Shown here: one piece after another, positions 47,321-54,632 of the stretch
Numbering within the stretch: position 1 is the first letter of the stretch
How the letters are laid out: each line of letters opens with the position of its first letter
From: an uncultured Dehalococcoidales bacterium
GTDB taxonomy: Bacteria > Chloroflexota > Dehalococcoidia > Dehalococcoidales > UBA2162
Length of the DNA stretch: 59,750 nucleotides
Reading direction: 5' to 3'
Assembly: GCA_964396535.1 (NCBI GenBank)
Contig: CAYNFT010000001.1
Span: forward strand, 1-59,750
The notes under the pieces: generated by a model
What the model saw: only the letters and a program-made list of their open reading frames with translations
Databases searched by the model: none
What the model was told of the DNA's origin: nothing
Translations under genes and position numbers: made by a program

Positions 47321-47857
47321 TTAGTCAGCTAGGACGACAAAATCTTCTAATTTTTGATACGCCAAACTGAATTCTTTATCCCAATGCTCCATAGTTAGTT
47401 TTTCCTTCTCCTCCTGTGACATTATACAAAATTTAAAAATCAGAAATTCTAAAAATTCCCTTGTTTCCTTATTGCTAATCTGAGAAACTAAAGGCAATCG
47501 TTTCGTCACCGTTTCAATCATATCTGCTTCTTCAGATTGAAATATAACTTCTTTTAACTTTTCCATTGATGCTTGGTCGGGTAACAACCGGTCTAGAGAA
47601 TTAGGCCCCTGTTTACTTGCAAATTCCCACATTGAGCGCATTACCAGCTTGGTTTGAATTTCTGTCAAGGCTTCTCTTATAGGTGAAACTATTTTCTCCC
47701 TATTTTCCCTTCTAGCATCTCTAATTTCACGTTCCCTTTCTAGCTTTTGTCTTTCGGTCTCTCTTTTGCCTTGTAAAAAATCTCTAAGGAAATAGCCTCC
47801 ATAAATTACTATCCCAGTAGCTAGTATGGTAGCAACTGTGTTCCATATACCTTCCAT
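47321..47857 (-). CDS. hypothetical N-terminally anchored coiled-coil protein
   Basis: 178 aa. One TM (VATILATGIVIYGGYF) then a charged helix (ERQKLEREREIRDARRENREK). AT-rich. 11 nt upstream of the eIF-2B-like gene. Confidence 0.5.
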   Translation of the reverse strand: MEGIWNTVATILATGIVIYGGYFLRDFLQGKRETERQKLEREREIRDARRENREKIVSPIREALTEIQTKLVMRSMWEFASKQGPNSLDRLLPDQASMEKLKEVIFQSEEADMIETVTKRLPLVSQISNKETREFLEFLIFKFCIMSQEEKEKLTMEHWDKEFSLAYQKLEDFVVLAD

Positions 47858-48991: not shown

Positions 48992-49030
48992 AGATTTATT
49001 ATCTACCTCACTCCATTAGGTTCTTATTTG

Positions 49031-49128
49031 GTAACCCCATCCCCTGTATCCCCTTCCCCTTGATAAGGAGAAGGGGATAGGGTTTCATAAATCTTAAGTG
49101 GGTGAGGCTTCGCCCCCTCAAACTTCCC
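49031..49128. repeat. two-hairpin repeat copy (F, rearranged)
   Basis: gtaaccccatcccctgtatccccttcccctt/gat/aaggagaaggggatagggtt ... gtgggtgaggcttcgccccctc. Confidence 0.75.
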
Positions 49129-49150
49129 TTGATAAACCAGAAACGAATCT

Positions 49151-50431
49151 TTAAGGTCTTACCTGCCCGCTGCCAAAGATAATCCATTTATAGGTGGTCA
49201 GTTCCTTTAATCCTATTGGACCGCGGGCATGCATCTTCTGGGTGCTGATAGCTACCTCTGCTCCCAGGCCGAATTGACCTCCATCGGTGAAGCGGGTGCT
49301 GGCATTAACATAGACACAGGCAGCATCCACTTCATTGAGGAAGCGCATAGCGGCACCATAATCCTCAGTAACAATGGCTTCGTCTGCCCCCGAACCATAG
49401 CGCTCAATGTGCTCCAGAGCCTCGTCCAGAGAATCCACCACCCTGACCGCCGCCACCAGTGCCAGAAACTCCTTGCCCCAATCCTCCTCTGTAGACGCTA
49501 CTAGCCTTAAAGAAGAGTCTGCTTTAAGAATGGACAGGGCTCGTTCATCGCAGCGCATCTCTACTCCAGCCTTTGCCCACTCAGTCGCTACCAGCGGCAG
49601 GTAGCTCTGGGCGATATCGGCGTGAACCAGCAGGGTATCCAGGGCGTTGCACACTGAAGGTCGCTGCACCTTGGCATTGAAGGCTATAGCCACTGCCTTG
49701 GCCAAATCGGCGCTCTTGTCAACATAGGTATGGCAAACGCCAATGCCACCGCTGATGACCGCCATAGCAGCATTCTCGTTAACAAAATTTATTAGCTCGG
49801 CCCCGCCCCGGGGGACAATCAGGTCGATATTGTCGTTCATCTTGAGCAGGTGATTGATGAGTGCTCGGTCGGTATTCTCAACAAACTGCACCACCCCCTC
49901 GGGCATCCCGGCTCTGGTAGCCGCTTCCTGGACTACACCGGCTAAAGCGCCGTTGGAGTGAACCGCCTCCTTACCACCCCTGAGGATAATGGCATTGCCT
50001 GATTTCAGGCAGAGCACCGAGATGTCTATAGTAACGTTGGGTCGGCTCTCATAGATAGTAGCGATTACCCCGAAAGGAACCCGCTTTCTACCTATCAGCA
50101 AGCCATTGGGCAGGGTGCGCATATCAAACACCTCGCCCACAGGGTCAGGGAGTGCTGCCACTGCCAGCACATCATGGGCTATACCCTCAAGGCGGCTGGG
50201 AGAGAGTGTCAATCGTTCAAGCATAGCCTCGTTCATCCCTGATGCCTTAGCTTCGCTGCAATCAATTTCATTGGTAGCCAGTATTTTATCCTTCCTGGCT
50301 AACAGGTCATCAGAGATATTAGCTAAAGCCTTGTTCTTTATCTCGGTAGAGAGATAGGCCAGCCGACGAGAAGCCGCCTTGGCTGCCTTTCCCTTTGCCT
50401 GTAGTTCTTCAATTGCTGATGTCATATTCAT
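49151..50431 (-). CDS. proA: glutamate-5-semialdehyde dehydrogenase (gamma-glutamyl phosphate reductase)
   Basis: 426 aa. ESRPNVT, VCNALDTLLVH catalytic Cys, ASTRFTDG. Confidence 0.95.
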   Translation of the reverse strand: MNMTSAIEELQAKGKAAKAASRRLAYLSTEIKNKALANISDDLLARKDKILATNEIDCSEAKASGMNEAMLERLTLSPSRLEGIAHDVLAVAALPDPVGEVFDMRTLPNGLLIGRKRVPFGVIATIYESRPNVTIDISVLCLKSGNAIILRGGKEAVHSNGALAGVVQEAATRAGMPEGVVQFVENTDRALINHLLKMNDNIDLIVPRGGAELINFVNENAAMAVISGGIGVCHTYVDKSADLAKAVAIAFNAKVQRPSVCNALDTLLVHADIAQSYLPLVATEWAKAGVEMRCDERALSILKADSSLRLVASTEEDWGKEFLALVAAVRVVDSLDEALEHIERYGSGADEAIVTEDYGAAMRFLNEVDAACVYVNASTRFTDGGQFGLGAEVAISTQKMHARGPIGLKELTTYKWIIFGSGQVRP

Positions 50432-50457
50432 ACTCCTGATTATGCATTATATACTGT

Positions 50458-50554
50458 AACCCCACCCCCTGTATCCCCTTCCCTTTGATAAGGGGAAGGG
50501 GAAGAATTTTTCTTAAGAGGGGCGAAGCCCCTCTTTGACTCTCCTATTTTATAT
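50458..50554. repeat. two-hairpin repeat copy (F)
   Basis: aaccccaccccctgtatccccttcccttt/gat/aaggggaagggg, then agaggggc/gaa/gcccctct, then ttgactctcc. Confidence 0.9.
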
Positions 50555-50566
50555 ATCTCTTCTTCT

Positions 50567-51565
50567 TTATCTATTCAAGCATCCTTTCGTATCTCTGGGC
50601 AAGCCCTCTGTTTCAAACTGGATACCGGGGAAGGAGTCCCTGAGCCTTTTTGAAGTAACCTCTATAGCATCATAGTTAATATCTATCCCTATCCAGCGTC
50701 GATTCAGCTTATGGGCGGCAACAAGGGCGGTGCCGCAGCCACAGAAGGGGTCAAGCACAATATCCCCTTCGTTGGAACTGGCTTTAACAATGCGCTCAAG
50801 CAAAGTGAGAGGCTTCTGGGTGGGATAGCCAAGGCGCTCCTTGTAGGGACCGTGAAGCGGGTCAATATCAGCCCACCAATCTTCTGGAACCTTGCCTTCA
50901 TATTTGAGGTAGTATTTCTTACCATATTTCAGCCAGTACCTGTTACCCTTATCGTCGGTGAAATATGTCCTGTTTGTTCTATCTACCAGAATATCCTCAT
51001 AGTTAAAAATCCACCTGTTACTTTTCGTATAGAAAAAGATGGTGTCGTGCTTCCGGGCAAAGTATTTTTTTGACCTCCCACCACCCTTATAGGACCAGGC
51101 AATCTCGTTGCGGAAGTTCTTGGCTCCGAATATGCGGTCAAGAACAAGTTTTAAATAATGGCTGGTAGAGGGGTCACAATGAAGATACAGAGAGCCGGTA
51201 TCCTTGAGCGTACGGTGCATCTCAAGCAACCTTGGGGTCATCATGACTAAATACGCTGCTACAGGGGTAGTGCCAATGCCTTCTACCATTCCGCCAATAA
51301 GTTTCCCAACTTCCAACGGTGCCTTTAGCAGGATTTCCTGGAGAGTGTCCTCTGCCGTCCTGTCCCAGGTCCAGGTATCAGAGAAAGCTTTTACTCTTGC
51401 CCCGGGCCGCTTACCATTATTTTCTTTATAGAGAAGGTTATAATCCCGGTTACTGCCGAAAGGCGGGTCAAGGTATATCAGGCCAATGGAGCTATCAGGG
51501 ATATATTTACGCAAGATTTCCAGATTGTCGCCGAAATAGAGGACGTTAGTTTTTAGTTCTGCCAT
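50567..51565 (-). CDS. DNA (N6-adenine or N4-cytosine) methyltransferase, beta-class motif order
   Basis: LIYLDPPFGS (motif IV) precedes DPFCGCGTALVAA (motif I). ATG 51565 (MAELKTNVLYF) is preferred, with SD ggtgaggt supplied by the adjacent repeat tail. Confidence 0.85.
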   Translation of the reverse strand: MAELKTNVLYFGDNLEILRKYIPDSSIGLIYLDPPFGSNRDYNLLYKENNGKRPGARVKAFSDTWTWDRTAEDTLQEILLKAPLEVGKLIGGMVEGIGTTPVAAYLVMMTPRLLEMHRTLKDTGSLYLHCDPSTSHYLKLVLDRIFGAKNFRNEIAWSYKGGGRSKKYFARKHDTIFFYTKSNRWIFNYEDILVDRTNRTYFTDDKGNRYWLKYGKKYYLKYEGKVPEDWWADIDPLHGPYKERLGYPTQKPLTLLERIVKASSNEGDIVLDPFCGCGTALVAAHKLNRRWIGIDINYDAIEVTSKRLRDSFPGIQFETEGLPRDTKGCLNR

Positions 51566-51569
51566 CTCT

Positions 51570-51676
51570 ACCTCACCCACTTTATTTTATACAACCCCAT
51601 CCCCTATATCCCATTCCCCTTAGCAAGGGGAAGGGGAATTTCATGTGAGAGGGGCTTCGCCCCTCTCTGACTCCCT
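51570..51676. repeat. two-hairpin repeat copy (F, with tail)
   Basis: cctcacccactttattttatacaaccccatcccc, then ttcccctt/agc/aaggggaa, then agaggggc/ttc/gcccctct, then ctgactccc. Confidence 0.9.
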
Positions 51677-51733
51677 TTAACTTATATAGAATCTTTGGGA
51701 ACAGGAGTACGTTACCTTAATGTAACGCAAAAG

Positions 51734-52399
51734 TCACTCCTTGGGTATTTCTTTAAAAATGGCTAGGCCACTTTCTCTAAGCTTACTTAGACGGTCTTCA
51801 AGTGAATCGGATAAAAGGGCACAGTAATCCAAGCAATTAGCTGACTCAAATAGCAGACTGACTAGAACGGCAAATAAGATAGATATATTCCTTCGAAGTG
51901 CCTTTTCATTGAAAGGCTGAAAAACTCTCCAATCTCCTGACTCGAAATCAATCATATGAGACATAGATTCAGGTGCAAAAGAGATATGGGAAGCATGTTT
52001 GTTTAAATAATTGCGCAATTTCTTAGATTCCCCGTGAATAAGCTTGGCTATCTCTCCTGCTGATGGCAATCTCTCTTCCAGTGCTTCATCTACTCTTTGG
52101 GGATTATCATAAAAGTACCTCAGAAGCTCAATACATTCAATTAAAGGGCGTAAGAGAGCCCCGGCTTCTTGTGCAAGGCCATCCAATGTCAGGCTAAATA
52201 TACCTTGAGCAAGGCACCTACCTTTAAGCAAAGTAAGTCCGACCACTCTGGAGAAAGTCGAAGCCTTTCCAGGGGAATTGAACATACCAAGCATTTCATC
52301 TAGTAGTGAAAAAGTTTGATAAATAGTATTGGCTTCTATCTGTAATTCAGATTCAATAGCACTCATAGCGTTCGTTCTGGTGTTCCAAATTTCATGCAT
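51734..52399 (-). CDS. hypothetical all-alpha protein, paralogue of 31177-31938 (HEPN/Abi-like, tentative)
   Basis: 221 aa. SD gtgaggaa. Contains RNYLNKH (R-x5-H). AT-rich. Confidence 0.6.
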   Translation of the reverse strand: MHEIWNTRTNAMSAIESELQIEANTIYQTFSLLDEMLGMFNSPGKASTFSRVVGLTLLKGRCLAQGIFSLTLDGLAQEAGALLRPLIECIELLRYFYDNPQRVDEALEERLPSAGEIAKLIHGESKKLRNYLNKHASHISFAPESMSHMIDFESGDWRVFQPFNEKALRRNISILFAVLVSLLFESANCLDYCALLSDSLEDRLSKLRESGLAIFKEIPKE

Positions 52400-52545
52400 C
52401 GCAATTCCTCACTCTACCACACTCCTCTGAACCAGTTCATCTATTTCAGTCGTTATCATAACGGTCTCCTGAAAGACTATGAATATCTTCTTGTATTGCT
52501 GGATTTCATCGCTCTCTTACTTTTCCTCCTCACCACTAACAGGTG

Positions 52546-52626
52546 TTTAAGAGGAGCGAAACTCCTCTTTTATTTATACTTCCCCCTTCCCTTATCAAGG
52601 GAAGGGGGTCAGGGGGATAGGTTGCC
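52546..52626. repeat. two-hairpin repeat copy (R)
   Basis: agaggag/cgaaa/ctcctct, then cccccttccctt/atc/aagggaaggggg, then tcagggggataggttgcc. Abuts the proB stop codon. Confidence 0.9.
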
Positions 52627-53778
52627 TTAAAGCATAACTAGGTTGTTTCGGTGCACGACCTCGGAGCCGTAGTCATAGCCGAGCGTGGCGGCAATTTTAT
52701 TTGAGTGCACCCCTTTAATAGCCGCAATATCAACCGAGCTATAGTTGGTTATGCCGCAGCCGAGCCGGGTCCCCTCGGGGTCGTAGAGATTAACGATGTC
52801 GCCGCGCTGAAACTTACCCTCAATCTGCGTAATGCCGGCTGCCAGCAGGCTTCGTTTCTGCTTTTTTAAAGCCAGAGCTGCCCCGGAATCTACCACCAGC
52901 TTTCCCTTTGTGGAAAGCCCGCTCAGCATCCAGCGCTTGCGACTCTCCAGCTTGCTGACCATTGGCAGGAAGCGGGTACCGACTGTTTCACCTGCTGCCA
53001 GTCTCAAAATAATATCCGGTTCCCTGCCGTCGGCTATGATTACCGTTACCCCTGAAGCGGTAGCCAGTTTGGCAGCCTCTACCTTGGTAGCCATACCACC
53101 GGTGCCAAGAGTGCCCGGCGTATCTGTCACCAGACTTTCAATCTTTGAATCAATCCTGTCCACTTGCGGAATGAGACGTGCATCAGGATTGCGGTATGGG
53201 TCAGCAGTATATAGCCCGGCAATATCACTGAGAATTAACAGCAGGTCAGCATCAACCAGGTTAGCCACCATGGCGGAAAGATTATCGTTATCGCCAAATT
53301 TAGCTTCCTGAATCTCATCCACCGCTACCACATCGTTTTCATTAACGATACATACCACCCTTAGCTCAACTAAAGCGAGCAGTGTATTGCGGGCATTGAG
53401 ATAACCAGCCCGGTCAGCAAGGTCTGCCCTGGTCAGCAGTGCCTGAGCTACAGTAATATTATGTCGAGCAAAGAGCTGGTCGTAGACATTCATCAGTCGA
53501 CCTTGCCCCACTGAAGCCAGCACCTGCTTAAAAGGAATATCTCTACGCTCCCTGGCTAACCCCAGTTTATACCTGCCGGCAGCTATAGCTCCGGAAGAGA
53601 CGATGAGTAGCTCCAGACCCTGCTTGTGTAACTGTGCCACCTGGGCTACCAACCCTGACATTATTTCCTGGTTAAGGTGGTCACCACCGCCAGTAAGAAG
53701 GCTGGTGCCAAGCTTAACCACTAAGCGGTGATAGGGCAAAGTCTTTGAACTGGTTTTCTCACTTTTGTTCTTGGCCAT
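52627..53778 (-). CDS. proB: glutamate 5-kinase with PUA domain
   Basis: 383 aa. [28 protein letters not shown]-terminal PUA ([11 protein letters not shown]). Confidence 0.95.
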
Positions 53779-53929
53779 CTAAATTTTAACCAACTGAATT
53801 TGCCCTATTATAGCAAGCTGAAGCAGGCTGGACAAATATAGAGGTTGTTACGAAACTCTTGTACAGACGGAATCAAAGGTTCAACAATTCATAATTGCAC
53901 ATTCTGGCTGATTGTTAACTAAGGGAGAG

Positions 53930-53953
53930 TTCGAATCCACTCAGGTGGGCCGA
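53930..53953 (+). other. tRNA 3'-half-like scrap (possible old att remnant)
   Basis: TTCGAATCCACT-CAGGTGG-G-CCg looks like T-loop, 3' T-stem, 3' acceptor strand and discriminator. The 5' partner sequence does not pair. Confidence 0.25.
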
Positions 53954-54069
53954 TTAGGGGAATTGAGGTCCTGCACGTATTCCCGCACTACCTCCGGGTC
54001 AGTAAGTTCGATAGTTCGGTATCTTAGTGTCTCTTCTGCCTCCGCCTTGGCCTGCTGAAGTTGTTCCAT
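53941..54069 (-). pseudogene. 42-codon remnant resembling the coiled-coil tail of a serine recombinase
   Basis: MEQLQQAKAEAEETLRYRTIELTDPEVVREYVQDLNSPNRPT. Weak pattern-level similarity only. Confidence 0.2.
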
Positions 54070-54099
54070 CTCTTCACCAATATTTTTTTACTTCCAATG

Positions 54100-54395
54100 G
54101 ACTGTGCTAGTACCGTGTCCCAAGCGTCGGTATCACCGACCACGTAACATTTTCCAAGGTCTAGAGCTAAATCCTTGCGTGCTGCAAACACCAGACCCGG
54201 CTTGGGTTTTCTGCATGTGCAGTCATCCTCTTCTCTATGTGGTCAGCAGTATACTGCATCTATCCTGGCTCCGCCGTCTTCCACTTCATGCTGGATGGCG
54301 GCTACCCTTTCTTGGAAATATTGGTAGCCGAAGTCCCCCCTAGCGATATGGCTTTGATTTGTGATTATTATTGCAAGAAGGTAGCGCGGCATGGG
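54100..54395 (-). pseudogene. HAD-IIIA phosphatase (GmhB/histidinol-phosphatase-like) fragment lacking the N-terminal DxD motif
   Basis: YLLAIIITNQSHIARGDFGYQYF...IDAVYCCPHREEDDCTCRKPKPGLVF...CYVVGDTDAWD. Confidence 0.55.
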
Positions 54396-54522
54396 CGTGG
54401 TCGCAGGTCAGTCGTTGCTGGTTAGAGCCGTCGGCATCCATCACGTGTATCTCAAAGTCCCCGTCACGGTCAGACTCGAACGCAATCCTGCTGGGAGGAG
54501 CTACTTCCTCTTCTTCTTCCAC
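54340..54522 (-). pseudogene. single PD40/TolB-type beta-propeller blade fragment
   Basis: RIAFESDRDGDFEIHVMDADGSNQQRLT, after which the frame decays into the HAD fragment in another frame. Confidence 0.45.
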
Positions 54523-54632
54523 AGGCGGAAAGACTGAGTATTAGTACCGTGACAAGAGAGAGGAGTAAGCATTTCCTGAACATCTTTGCGGCATATCTGG
54601 ATTAATATAGAAATGCTCTGGTTCATGGCGCG

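Follow-up and report, generated by a model that had tools for sequence, protein, structure and literature searches.

Orphan beta-class N6-adenine methylases are leftovers of decayed restriction-modification systems, and YhdJ of Escherichia coli is a solitary relative of this kind. Open reading frames (ORFs) linked to restriction systems are also known: PrrC, an anticodon nuclease, is encoded within Type Ic loci, and Campylobacter has rlo genes in its Type I loci. Here, we analyzed a stretch of 59,750 nt (the 59.75-kb window) from an uncultured Dehalococcoidales bacterium, in which a DNA methyltransferase gene and a gene for a 221-aa protein lie between proB and proA. A first-pass annotation had suggested that the two genes could form a single defense or addiction cassette with a HEPN-like component, framed by repeats. 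In our reading, to which we give a probability of about 0.7, the slot instead contains what is left of two restriction-modification systems that are unrelated to each other and have both been disarmed.

Layout of the locus

The features are listed below in the order of transcription of the proB and proA genes. The E values of the repeats come from an nhmmer profile made from copies A to D, and these four copies therefore score best by construction.

52627-53778, minus strand: proB (glutamate 5-kinase, 383 aa; Pfam AA_kinase 9e-42 and PUA 8e-19)
52537-52638, plus strand: repeat copy A (nhmmer 3.6e-25), overlapping the last proB codons and abutting the Type IIG stump
52409-52513, minus strand: decayed 3' stump of a Type IIG gene (34 codons and TGA), with 9 nt between its end and the start codon (ATG) of the 221-aa gene
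51734-52399, minus strand: gene of the all-alpha protein of 221 aa, which is probably distantly related to DUF5677 and whose family is linked to restriction systems
51579-51680, minus strand: repeat copy B (nhmmer 1.2e-28), lying between the 221-aa gene and the methyltransferase and pointing in the direction of transcription
50567-51565, minus strand: beta-class N6-adenine-type DNA methyltransferase, 332 aa, N6_N4_Mtase (PF01555)
50442-50545, minus strand: repeat copy C (nhmmer 1.2e-29), directly upstream of proA
49151-50431, minus strand: proA (glutamate-5-semialdehyde dehydrogenase, 426 aa; Pfam Aldedh 4e-20)
49017-49134, minus strand: repeat copy D (nhmmer 1.3e-29), in the spacer where proA and the RNase PH gene converge

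Much of the first-pass description of the locus was reproduced. An ORF check placed proB, the 221-aa ORF, the methyltransferase, and proA where they had been annotated, all on the minus strand, with 2.2 kb between proB and proA. Each of the two genes in between has a Shine-Dalgarno sequence of its own, and nhmmer found one two-hairpin repeat of about 100 nt at each junction and a fourth after proA. Promoter and terminator consensus scans gave counts not above those in shuffles.

Since every junction has a repeat and repeats are classic misassembly sites, the arrangement might have been an assembly artefact, that is, a chimeric metagenome join at the repeat copies. However, a second contig (L088, 2,665 nt) spans the end of proB, the 221-aa gene, the methyltransferase, and the start of proA in the identical order; over 2,574 nt, it has a single mismatch to the window. 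The methyltransferase was also found in the same slot in relatives. Because this independent contig shows the same order, a chimera is extremely improbable. L088 represents the same strain as the window and was not counted as a recurrence of the gene pair elsewhere.

The spacer between proB and proA is a variable slot

Orthologs of proB (64-83% identity) were found in 65 related Dehalococcoidales loci and orthologs of proA (72-83% identity) in 80 species. The two genes had been presumed to be normally adjacent in bacteria, which does not hold in this clade: the proB-proA gap had a median of 433 nt and a range of 7-3,531 nt in 65 related species, and only 4 of these had a gap of ≤50 nt. The cargo in relatives included the methyltransferase, an 88-aa family, and DUF3800 proteins, as well as glutamate-dehydrogenase-like, acetyltransferase-like, channel-like, and efflux-like proteins, where the dehydrogenase, acetyltransferase, channel, and efflux labels were judged by eye from sequence, with no HMM. 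Across the whole of this uncultured Dehalococcoidales clade, the spacer is thus a slot of variable content, with proB as its upstream and proA as its downstream border. No homolog of the 88-aa family was found in the window, and no synteny with relatives was detected upstream of proB.

When the proBA loci of relatives were compared, the two genes of the putative cassette behaved differently. Homologs of the methyltransferase occupied the slot in 13 of the 80 related species, and the 221-aa gene was absent from all 13 and from the related proA loci as a whole (0/80). Gene order without repeats in relatives had been named in advance as a sign of ancestral synteny rather than insertion; it was seen for the methyltransferase, in the repeat-free slot of locus L012, but not for the 221-aa gene.

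A probable long-term resident methyltransferase without the Mrr-like domain of most homologs

The assignment to the beta-class amino-methyltransferases was confirmed. The protein has the PF01555 domain (N6_N4_Mtase, 5e-46; 157.8 bits, where the cut-off is 26.7), and motif IV (LDPPFGSN) lies N-terminal to motif I (DPFCGCGT). It also matched PADLOC MTase_II (1e-64), and its closest solved relatives were MboIIA (2.7e-23) and RsrI. The best NCBIfam model was PRK11524, at 132.8 bits and under its cut-off of 292; we take this model, given as 'adenine-specific DNA-methyltransferase' in the NCBIfam output, to be that of E. coli YhdJ. The ATG at 51565 is preceded, at a distance of 6 nt, by GAGG; the mechanical ORF extends further, to a GTG at 51580.

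The methyltransferase is native-like in composition (GC 0.47, GC3 0.53, with a window mean of 0.526 ± 0.064). The identity of its conserved parts tracks that of proA with a pairwise Spearman coefficient of 0.70, although the pairs are non-independent and exchange of the slot by homologous recombination among close relatives is also compatible with this value. Among 12 slot loci, nine recognition-region types were distinguished; the catalytic parts are conserved, and the central region is swapped between species. From these sequence features, the methyltransferase appears to be an old, long-term resident of the slot, whose recognition region would have been exchanged between species.

Slot homologs in relatives are usually 475-541 aa long. 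In an alignment of the window protein and 11 homologs, 9 of the 12 had a C-terminal Mrr_cat / NA-iREase1 domain, and the methyltransferases of the window, L012, and L015 ended at the domain linker. In the window, this end lies 21 nt ahead of repeat C, and no remnant of the Mrr-like domain was found past the linker. The observation that no recognizable restriction endonuclease is present was also borne out: Pfam found no nuclease domain in the ORFs of 49.1-53.8 kb, and the window has no adjacent or fused cognate endonuclease that would complete a Type II system. Thus, because the Mrr-like domain (PD-(D/E)xK fold) was lost, probably by deletion, the window methyltransferase is now an orphan methylase. 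Most likely, judging from its DPPF motif, it still methylates adenine at a target set by its recognition region.

The 221-aa protein is a probable distant DUF5677 relative and not a HEPN RNase

Both genes had been described as visibly AT-richer. This is true of the 221-aa gene (GC 0.40, GC3 0.338; the large ORFs of the window have a GC3 of 0.526 ± 0.064), which is compositionally foreign, and only weakly so of the methyltransferase. The 221-aa family comprises 134 homologs and about 285 clusters at 50% identity. In an exhaustive profile search, all matches were single-domain proteins of about 220 aa, with no domain fusions. The protein itself scored 24.6 bits against Pfam DUF5677 (PF18928), where the gathering cut-off is 27.1, and 33 of 44 family members gave weak DUF5677 matches (best 4.5e-7); the alignment covers profile positions 4-85 of 166, that is, the first half only. 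By these matches, the 221-aa protein is classed as a distant DUF5677 relative, not a curated member.

The proposed kinship with HEPN/AbiV-type proteins was not upheld. The RNYLNKH string on which it was partly based is present at residues 129-135, but R-x5-H is not a conserved motif: R129 is invariant over 44 homologs, whereas H, R, Y, N, V, and other residues occur at position 135, and position 130 is variable as well. The invariant histidine of the family is H138, which gives R-x8-H with R129; the invariant charged residues are K59, E78, R84, E91, R129, and H138. For any of the 44 members, no HEPN/AbiV family was matched in Pfam at E ≤ 0.1, and neither NCBIfam nor PHROGs gave such a match for the 221-aa protein. 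An AF2 model with ten helices (pLDDT 92.9) had no Foldseek match against PDB and BFVD at E ≤ 0.001, the top matches being GPCR-like helical bundles with TM-scores of 0.3-0.36, and the family profile returned only noise from PDB sequences (E ≥ 0.3). The protein thus has neither a conserved R-x4-6-H, nor a HEPN-clan profile match, nor a match to the HEPN four-helix-bundle fold in PDB or BFVD, and HEPN/AbiV identity was rejected on motif conservation, HMM scans, and fold searches.

Two other candidate relatives were examined by profile comparison and found to be unrelated to the family: a 220-aa Pseudomonas neighbor, considered as a possible paralog, and a protein of 253 aa with an R-x4-H string, encoded in the L057 slot. 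The 221-aa protein had no tblastn match in plasmid and phage collections.

The 221-aa family is linked to restriction enzymes

A link of the 221-aa family to methyltransferases elsewhere, on which the cassette proposal partly depended, was found, and the partners are methyltransferase-bearing restriction enzymes: Type IIG in eight distinct loci and Type III mod/res in three. In seven of the Type IIG loci, the enzyme is followed by a homolog 58-71% identical to the window protein, at a spacing of 5-12 nt or overlapping; in the eighth, a 132-aa ORF separates the two. The Type IIG partners are about 1,030 aa long, with full-length PADLOC REase_MTase_IIG matches of about 1,000 bits. A second clade (44-46% identical) lies directly upstream of Type III mod and res, with the family gene 67-72 nt upstream of a beta-class Mod. 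In the clade associated with Type IIG enzymes, the family appears to be translationally coupled to them. In the best-ranked titles and abstracts of a literature search, nothing relevant to accessory genes downstream of Type IIG enzymes appeared.

The gene might alternatively be a stand-alone defense or abortive-infection-type gene that is independent of methylases and hitchhikes in defense islands. Many family members have no adjoining restriction gene and occur amid varied defense-island neighbors, including KAP NTPase, DUF4238, DUF3800, HSDR_N_2, integrases, a serine recombinase, a relaxase island, AbiEii, and GmrSD. The gene also seems to be still constrained here after the loss of the Type IIG enzyme, and DUF5677 domains are reported in one preprint to be enriched beside serine recombinases that mark defense islands (PMC12632615). 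However, the one DUF5677 ORF assayed in E. faecalis was outside the five active candidates of that study (PMC12632615), and the 221-aa protein has no PADLOC match at E ≤ 1. In addition, the close spacing to Type IIG enzymes recurs in three or more distinct flanking contexts, and the clade found with Type IIG enzymes is not the one found with Type III enzymes; both points favor operon partnership over loose co-residence. A stand-alone role is therefore unlikely. As a restriction-linked gene, the 221-aa gene most likely encodes an accessory, either a regulator or a back-up effector, and not a HEPN RNase.

A Type IIG stump precedes the 221-aa gene

Upstream of the 221-aa gene, no full-length Type IIG polypeptide (REase-MTase-TRD) is encoded, only the 34-codon stump. 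Its translation, SDEIQQYKKIFIVFQETVMITTEIDELVQRSVVE*, gave a gap-free alignment with the C-terminal 34 residues of the seven Type IIG enzymes that precede homologs of the 221-aa gene, with 11-13 of 34 residues identical. The tblastn E value was about 1e-5 in a local search, and the BLOSUM62 score (z = 7.2) was reached by 0 of 200,000 shuffles; with so short a stretch, this significance depends on the fixed register and the shuffle test. An in-frame stop lies directly upstream of the stump. Because a Type IIG stump precedes it, the 221-aa gene would come from another operon, and we regard it as a probable separate and recent import.

The stump and the 221-aa gene differ in conservation. The stump is 32-38% identical to the intact Type IIG C-termini, which are 71-88% identical among themselves, and the 221-aa protein is 58-71% identical to relatives that average 69% mutually. 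Being as conserved as its relatives in intact operons, the 221-aa gene probably retains a function of its own. According to this scenario, it would have arrived within a Type IIG restriction-modification operon, in which it stood downstream of the enzyme gene; the enzyme of about 1,030 aa would later have been deleted to its last 34 codons, which then decayed, and the 221-aa gene would have outlived its partner. Both the methyltransferase and the 221-aa gene are presumably active at present.

These results bear directly on the proposal that the methyltransferase and the 221-aa protein form one defense or addiction module, inserted as a unit, in which methylation keeps a HEPN-like toxin in check. 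The two genes are adjacent and co-directional with a Shine-Dalgarno sequence each; the 221-aa family is tied to methyltransferase-bearing enzymes, in the Type III loci at a short distance from a beta-class Mod; and the six invariant charged residues would fit an active site. However, 13 related species have the methyltransferase in this slot without the partner, this methyltransferase family is not a neighbor in any of about 60 loci with genes of the 221-aa family, and the pair thus recurred neither there (0/~60) nor in the related proA loci (0/80). The GC3 of the two genes differs (0.34 and 0.53), the methyltransferase co-diverges with proA, the stump indicates that the 221-aa gene has another operon origin, and the HEPN component is contradicted by the variable H135 and by the lack of HEPN/AbiV matches in Pfam, PADLOC, NCBIfam, and PHROGs and of any fold match. 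A single module is thus very unlikely, and two independent leftovers are preferred.

Two leftovers may nevertheless have become connected. The gene order in the window is that of the Type III loci, with the family gene followed by a beta-class methyltransferase, so a secondary functional link between the two genes is possible. More broadly, the DUF5677-related family could be an unrecognized dedicated partner of methyltransferase-bearing restriction enzymes that was perhaps re-wired here to the orphan methylase. We consider this unlikely; if true, the protein could be a regulator or back-up effector that monitors the restriction enzyme, and a minimal methylase-linked system would then exist in the window.

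The repeats are a clade-wide element

The repeat unit of about 100 nt consists of two different hairpins followed by a G-tract tail (GGGGAAGGGGATACAGGGGATGGGG). Copy A, on the proB side, is inverted relative to copies B to D, and copies A and B, which flank the 221-aa gene, are thus mutually inverted. The 59.75-kb window has 13 full copies, of which 11 lie in called intergenic spacers and two (151-236 and 272-366) lie outside them at the left edge of the window, according to an ORF-based partition. Among spacers of ≥60 nt, 10 of 32 (31%) are occupied; at this rate, the chance that four of four spacers would be occupied is about 0.01, which represents a modest local enrichment.

The repeat was found in related proA loci of 48 of 80 species, and it flanks unrelated genes across the window and in relatives. 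Compensatory changes were seen in 9 of 15 pairs in the two stems, and 50 of 58 copies between co-directional genes were oriented with transcription. No Rfam family matched the repeat, and a literature search returned no paper joining repetitive extragenic palindromic (REP) elements and Dehalococcoidia. With many dispersed intergenic copies and two conserved hairpins, the repeat is an intergenic element that is spread across the clade and has REP-like features.

The suggestion that the repeats mark an insertion is not supported, for this reason and also because 23 of 78 relatives have a copy that ends ≤60 nt from the start of proA, in one orientation and irrespective of the cargo. No repeat was found in other loci bearing the 221-aa family, and its absence from the loci of the closest homologs argues against repeats traveling with the gene. 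Copies do lie near or against both deletion scars in the window, which suggests by position that recombination at repeats may have done the trimming in both cases. L012 and L015 also have short methylases, yet neither has a repeat after the methylase.

What appeared to be a defense cassette in an essential operon thus becomes a readable history, in which a conserved core-gene slot takes up, diversifies, and then disarms restriction-modification genes. The orphan methylase left behind could now serve as an epigenetic regulator. For defense-system research, the lead is a family of about 285 clusters with a confident, unmatched all-alpha fold, tied to Type IIG and Type III enzymes. The orientation-biased two-hairpin repeat, with a fixed site upstream of proA, raises a separate question of RNA or DNA structure in uncultured Dehalococcoidales.

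Comparison with known systems

As in integration hot spots between core genes, varied cargo is found here between two conserved core genes. The window methyltransferase shares the N6_N4_Mtase domain, DPPF before FxGxG, and the lack of an adjacent nuclease with solitary beta-class N6-adenine methylases of the M.MboIIA/M.RsrI fold family. Unlike known solitary methylases, its ancestral partner was a fused C-terminal Mrr-like domain and not a separate endonuclease gene, and its family keeps one chromosomal slot while the recognition region is swapped between species.

The repeat resembles REP/BIME repeats in being short, GC-rich, hairpin-forming, multicopy, and intergenic, with compensatory stems and a transcription-biased orientation; it differs in its unit of about 100 nt with two different hairpins and a G-tract tail.

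Like HEPN/AbiV RNases, the 221-aa protein is all-alpha, has about 200 aa, occurs in defense-island contexts, and contains one R-x5-H string, but its family has no conserved R-x5-H and no HMM or Foldseek match to a solved HEPN. The family matches DUF5677 weakly yet repeatedly, but forms a compact group of its own. A parallel in gene arrangement exists with PrrC and the rlo genes: in both cases, a small gene without a restriction function of its own sits within, or is attached to, restriction-modification operons of different types and can persist when the partner is lost. In contrast to PrrC and RloC, the 221-aa family lacks an ATPase domain and a conserved HEPN motif, resembles neither of them by HMM or fold, and is partnered with Type IIG and Type III enzymes rather than placed in Type I loci as PrrC and rlo are.

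Organization of the proB-proA locus

Four genes lie on the minus strand of the window in the order proB, a 221-amino-acid (aa) open reading frame (ORF), a DNA methyltransferase (methylase), and proA.

52627-53778, minus strand: proB (Pfam AA_kinase and PUA)
51734-52399, minus strand: 221-aa ORF (Pfam, DUF5677 below threshold only)
50567-51565, minus strand: DNA methyltransferase (Pfam N6_N4_Mtase, 5e-46)
49151-50431, minus strand: proA (Pfam Aldedh)

The methylase starts at an ATG, and GAGG lies 6 nt before it (the mechanical ORF reaches a GTG at 51580); its motif order, DPPF before FCGCGT, is that of the beta class. One copy of a two-hairpin repeat of ~100 nt occupies each spacer of the locus (4/4), the copy beside proB (52537-52638) being inverted relative to the other three. 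The separation of proB and proA by these two genes, with one repeat per spacer, had been described in the first-pass annotation and was confirmed by ORF, Pfam, and repeat evidence. A further assembly contig, L088, shows this arrangement too and differs at one position in 2,574 nt. Therefore, the locus is not a chimera, and an assembly artifact is a far-fetched explanation of the arrangement. The last 90 nt of this contig (L088 2575-2662, window 50018-50105, inside proA) hold 19 mismatches, with one differing base before that; this cluster may mark the edge of recombination between strains or, within the population, an effect of the contig end.

The proB-proA slot is variable across the clade

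A proA scan of species-representative genomes yielded 80 Dehalococcoidales loci, 72-83% identical. Where proB was on the contig (65/80 loci), the median distance between the two genes was 433 nt (range, 7-3,531 nt); the gap was ≤50 nt in only 4 of the 65 loci and >700 nt in 24. RNase PH was convergent after proA almost everywhere. The spacer, or slot, is thus variable, and its cargo is heterogeneous, comprising the methylase family, an 88-aa family, a DUF3800 protein, and other proteins. Because the gaps are wide and cargo-filled, separated proB and proA are the normal state in this clade, and the earlier premise that the two are usually adjacent does not apply here.

The DUF3800 protein was Pfam-confirmed, unlike the 88-aa family (12 copies in 10 loci, no Pfam match) and the types judged by eye, which were glutamate-dehydrogenase-like (3 loci), acetyltransferase-like, mechanosensitive-channel-like, and MATE-efflux-like proteins. 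The glutamate-dehydrogenase-like protein (by eye, 426-434 aa) was found in the slots of L028 (4105-5409), L052 (4458-5738), and L067 (4682-5962). Such a passenger would be metabolically related, through the supply of glutamate, unlike the restriction-type cargo of other slots. Members of the 88-aa family (87-104 aa; motif WWGE...YIIELEDGRKG.C) directly follow proB in these 10 species and in many cases immediately precede the methylase (L040 4151-4417, L055 3645-3911, L059 3953-4267, L052 2484-2747, L030 2505-2777, L067 4275-4547, L027, L071, and two copies each in L036 and L054); no homologue was found in the window.

The methylase is resident in the slot and has lost a domain

Methylase homologues 51-78% identical were found between proB and proA at 11 loci, plus two contig-edge fragments. 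In their conserved parts, identity rises and falls with that of proA (Spearman 0.70), and the GC3 of the window copy, 0.53, is native (window mean, 0.526 ± 0.064). When 12 sequences were aligned, the N-terminal and catalytic regions were conserved and nine different central recognition regions were seen. Nine of the 12 (475-541 aa) carry a C-terminal domain (NA-iREase1, 1.9e-10; Mrr_cat, 1.2e-5; GIDG...VQVK signature), and those of the window (332 aa), L012, and L015 end at the linker. Mrr-fused slot methylases in relatives occur at L040 (4468-5901), L030, L043, L052, L055, L058, L059, L028, and L022. The L012 methylase is 78% identical to that of the window and has the same recognition region; no repeat was found anywhere in the L012 slot or after the L015 methylase. 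The window methylase stops 21 nt before the repeat preceding proA, and no remnant of the Mrr-like domain was found in the window. The methylase is therefore a long-standing resident of the slot, and the window copy is without the Mrr-like domain of most slot homologues. In general, the slot methylase resembles a single-chain enzyme that carries a nuclease-fold domain and diversifies while staying at one chromosomal site. The window copy is predicted to be an active orphan adenine methylase.

The 221-aa gene is a separate import

The first-pass annotation had joined the two genes in a single inserted methylase and HEPN-like cassette, for which the same order in repeat-free relatives would indicate ancestral synteny. 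That order was found for the methylase, L012 being repeat-free, but not for the 221-aa gene, which was absent from the related proA loci (0/80) and whose GC3, 0.34, falls short of the window mean by about 3 SD.

The AF2 model of the 221-aa protein is of high confidence (pLDDT 92.9, pTM 0.89) and has ten helices. It gave no Foldseek match in PDB or BFVD at E ≤ 0.001, and no PDB sequence relative was found. The family's invariant residues are K59, E78, G80, A81, R84, E91, P112, G115, R129, and H138; the R-x5-H string, which together with helix patterns had suggested a HEPN/AbiV-type protein, is not conserved. No HEPN, AbiV, or other defense HMM matched, and the DUF5677 match reached 24.6 bits versus a cutoff of 27.1. 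HEPN membership was thus rejected, and the single-cassette HEPN model is quite improbable. In an Enterococcus faecalis test, a DUF5677 ORF adjoining a serine recombinase was not among the active candidates (preprint, PMC12632615).

A database search returned 134 homologues, and 285 clusters (50% identity) came from an exhaustive profile search, every hit being a single-domain protein of ~220 aa; none was found in plasmid and phage collections. In the closest clade (54-72% identical), the gene lies 5-12 nt after, or overlaps, that of a 1,025-1,059-aa enzyme at 7 distinct loci (L004/L090, L005, L089, L094, L095, L143-145, and L146); at L001/L092, a 132-aa ORF intervenes. These enzymes are full-length PADLOC REase_MTase_IIG matches (~1,000 bits) with N6_Mtase and Type_ISP_C domains. 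Since the flanking genes vary among these loci, the Type IIG enzyme and the 221-aa-family gene move as a unit. A second clade (44-46% identical) lies 67-72 nt upstream of a Type III mod gene (N6_N4_Mtase and TypeIII_RM_meth), followed by res (ResIII), at L098, L101, and L103. At Type III mod/res loci, a conserved 314-321-aa protein without a Pfam match precedes the family gene (L098 610-1554, L103 3953-4915, L104 935-1897) and may be a further component of this module. Distant members lie in mixed mobile/defense islands beside KAP NTPase, DUF4238, HSDR_N_2, a serine recombinase with MmeI, or a relaxase, and some, e.g., in Pseudomonas, are without any restriction neighbor. That the 221-aa gene is a hitch-hiking stand-alone defense gene is unlikely.

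Within the 137 nt between the proB-side repeat and the 221-aa gene, a frame (52409-52513, minus strand) ends in TGA 9 nt before the ATG, which is the junction geometry of intact Type IIG operons. Its translation, SDEIQQYKKIFIVFQETVMITTEIDELVQRSVVE followed by the stop, aligns gap-free to the last 34 residues of 7/7 Type IIG partners, and 11-13 positions are identical. At fixed register, the BLOSUM62 score exceeds shuffles by 7.2 SD and was reached by 0/200,000 of them. An in-frame stop lies immediately upstream. This stump is 32-38% identical to intact C termini, versus 71-88% among themselves, and identity between the 221-aa protein and its relatives is 58-71%, the mean among these relatives being 69%. 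With the stump diverged and the 221-aa protein family-typical, the enzyme gene was deleted and the stump decayed. Thus, the 221-aa gene is of foreign origin; its normal partner is a Type IIG enzyme, whose stump lies ahead of it here, and it was acquired recently, separately from the methylase, out of a Type IIG operon.

The two-hairpin repeats belong to the host lineage

A search profile built from the four locus copies located 13 full copies across the window (59.75 kb). Of these, 11 are within called intergenic spacers and occupy 10 of the 32 spacers of ≥60 nt, and the other two are at the window's left edge. The repeat was found in the proA loci of 48/80 related species and in none of ~60 loci carrying relatives of the 221-aa gene. 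Being clade-wide and absent from the latter loci, the repeats belong to the host lineage rather than the imported gene, and the proposal that they mark the borders of an insertion was abandoned.

In 23/78 species, a copy ends ≤60 nt from the proA start codon in constant orientation, irrespective of upstream content (window 50442-50545; equivalent site in L009, L011, L013, L018, L025, L033, L035, L040, L048, and others). This fixed position, although proA is only 72-83% identical between species, suggests function or repeated homogenization. Both stems are maintained, with compensatory changes in 9/15 pairs. Between co-directional genes, 50/58 copies point with transcription, 23 of the 50 being the positionally conserved proA copy and hence not independent. 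No Rfam family matched. The 3' half reads GGGGAAGGGGATACAGGGGATGGGG (e.g., window 50442-50480, minus strand), with four G4 tracts and loops of 2, 5, and 2 nt, by sequence a textbook G-quadruplex motif. The first two tracts double as the 3' arm of hairpin 2, and this hairpin and the predicted G-quadruplex could compete. The G-tract strand falls in the transcript for the same 50/58 copies.

Two further regions of the window were noted. A 178-aa ORF (47321-47857, minus strand; GC 0.367, GC3 0.318), flanked by an IF-2B-family gene and two repeat copies, begins with a hydrophobic, putative membrane-spanning stretch and had no family match beyond weak noise (PADLOC Csm6, E 0.0016); this ORF, too, was probably inserted from a foreign source. 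Upstream of proB, 53779-54632 comprises 854 nt without an ORF of ≥90 aa and had no similarity to the corresponding sequence in 43 relatives. A 55-aa ORF within it (54024-54191) is probably a gene fragment because its match to the HAD Hydrolase_like profile is confined to the middle part (positions 12-50 of 75).

Implications

After loss of the enzyme, the 221-aa gene appears to have been kept under family-typical constraint, and its product probably still works, most likely as a restriction-linked accessory, either a regulator or a back-up effector. That it is a dedicated restriction partner rewired to the orphan methylase is a more speculative and rather unlikely reading. Repeat copies lie against or close to both deletion scars and may have helped cause the deletions. 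There is precedent both for orphan methylases arising from the decay of restriction systems and for hot spots between core genes. To these, the locus adds a clean molecular fossil.
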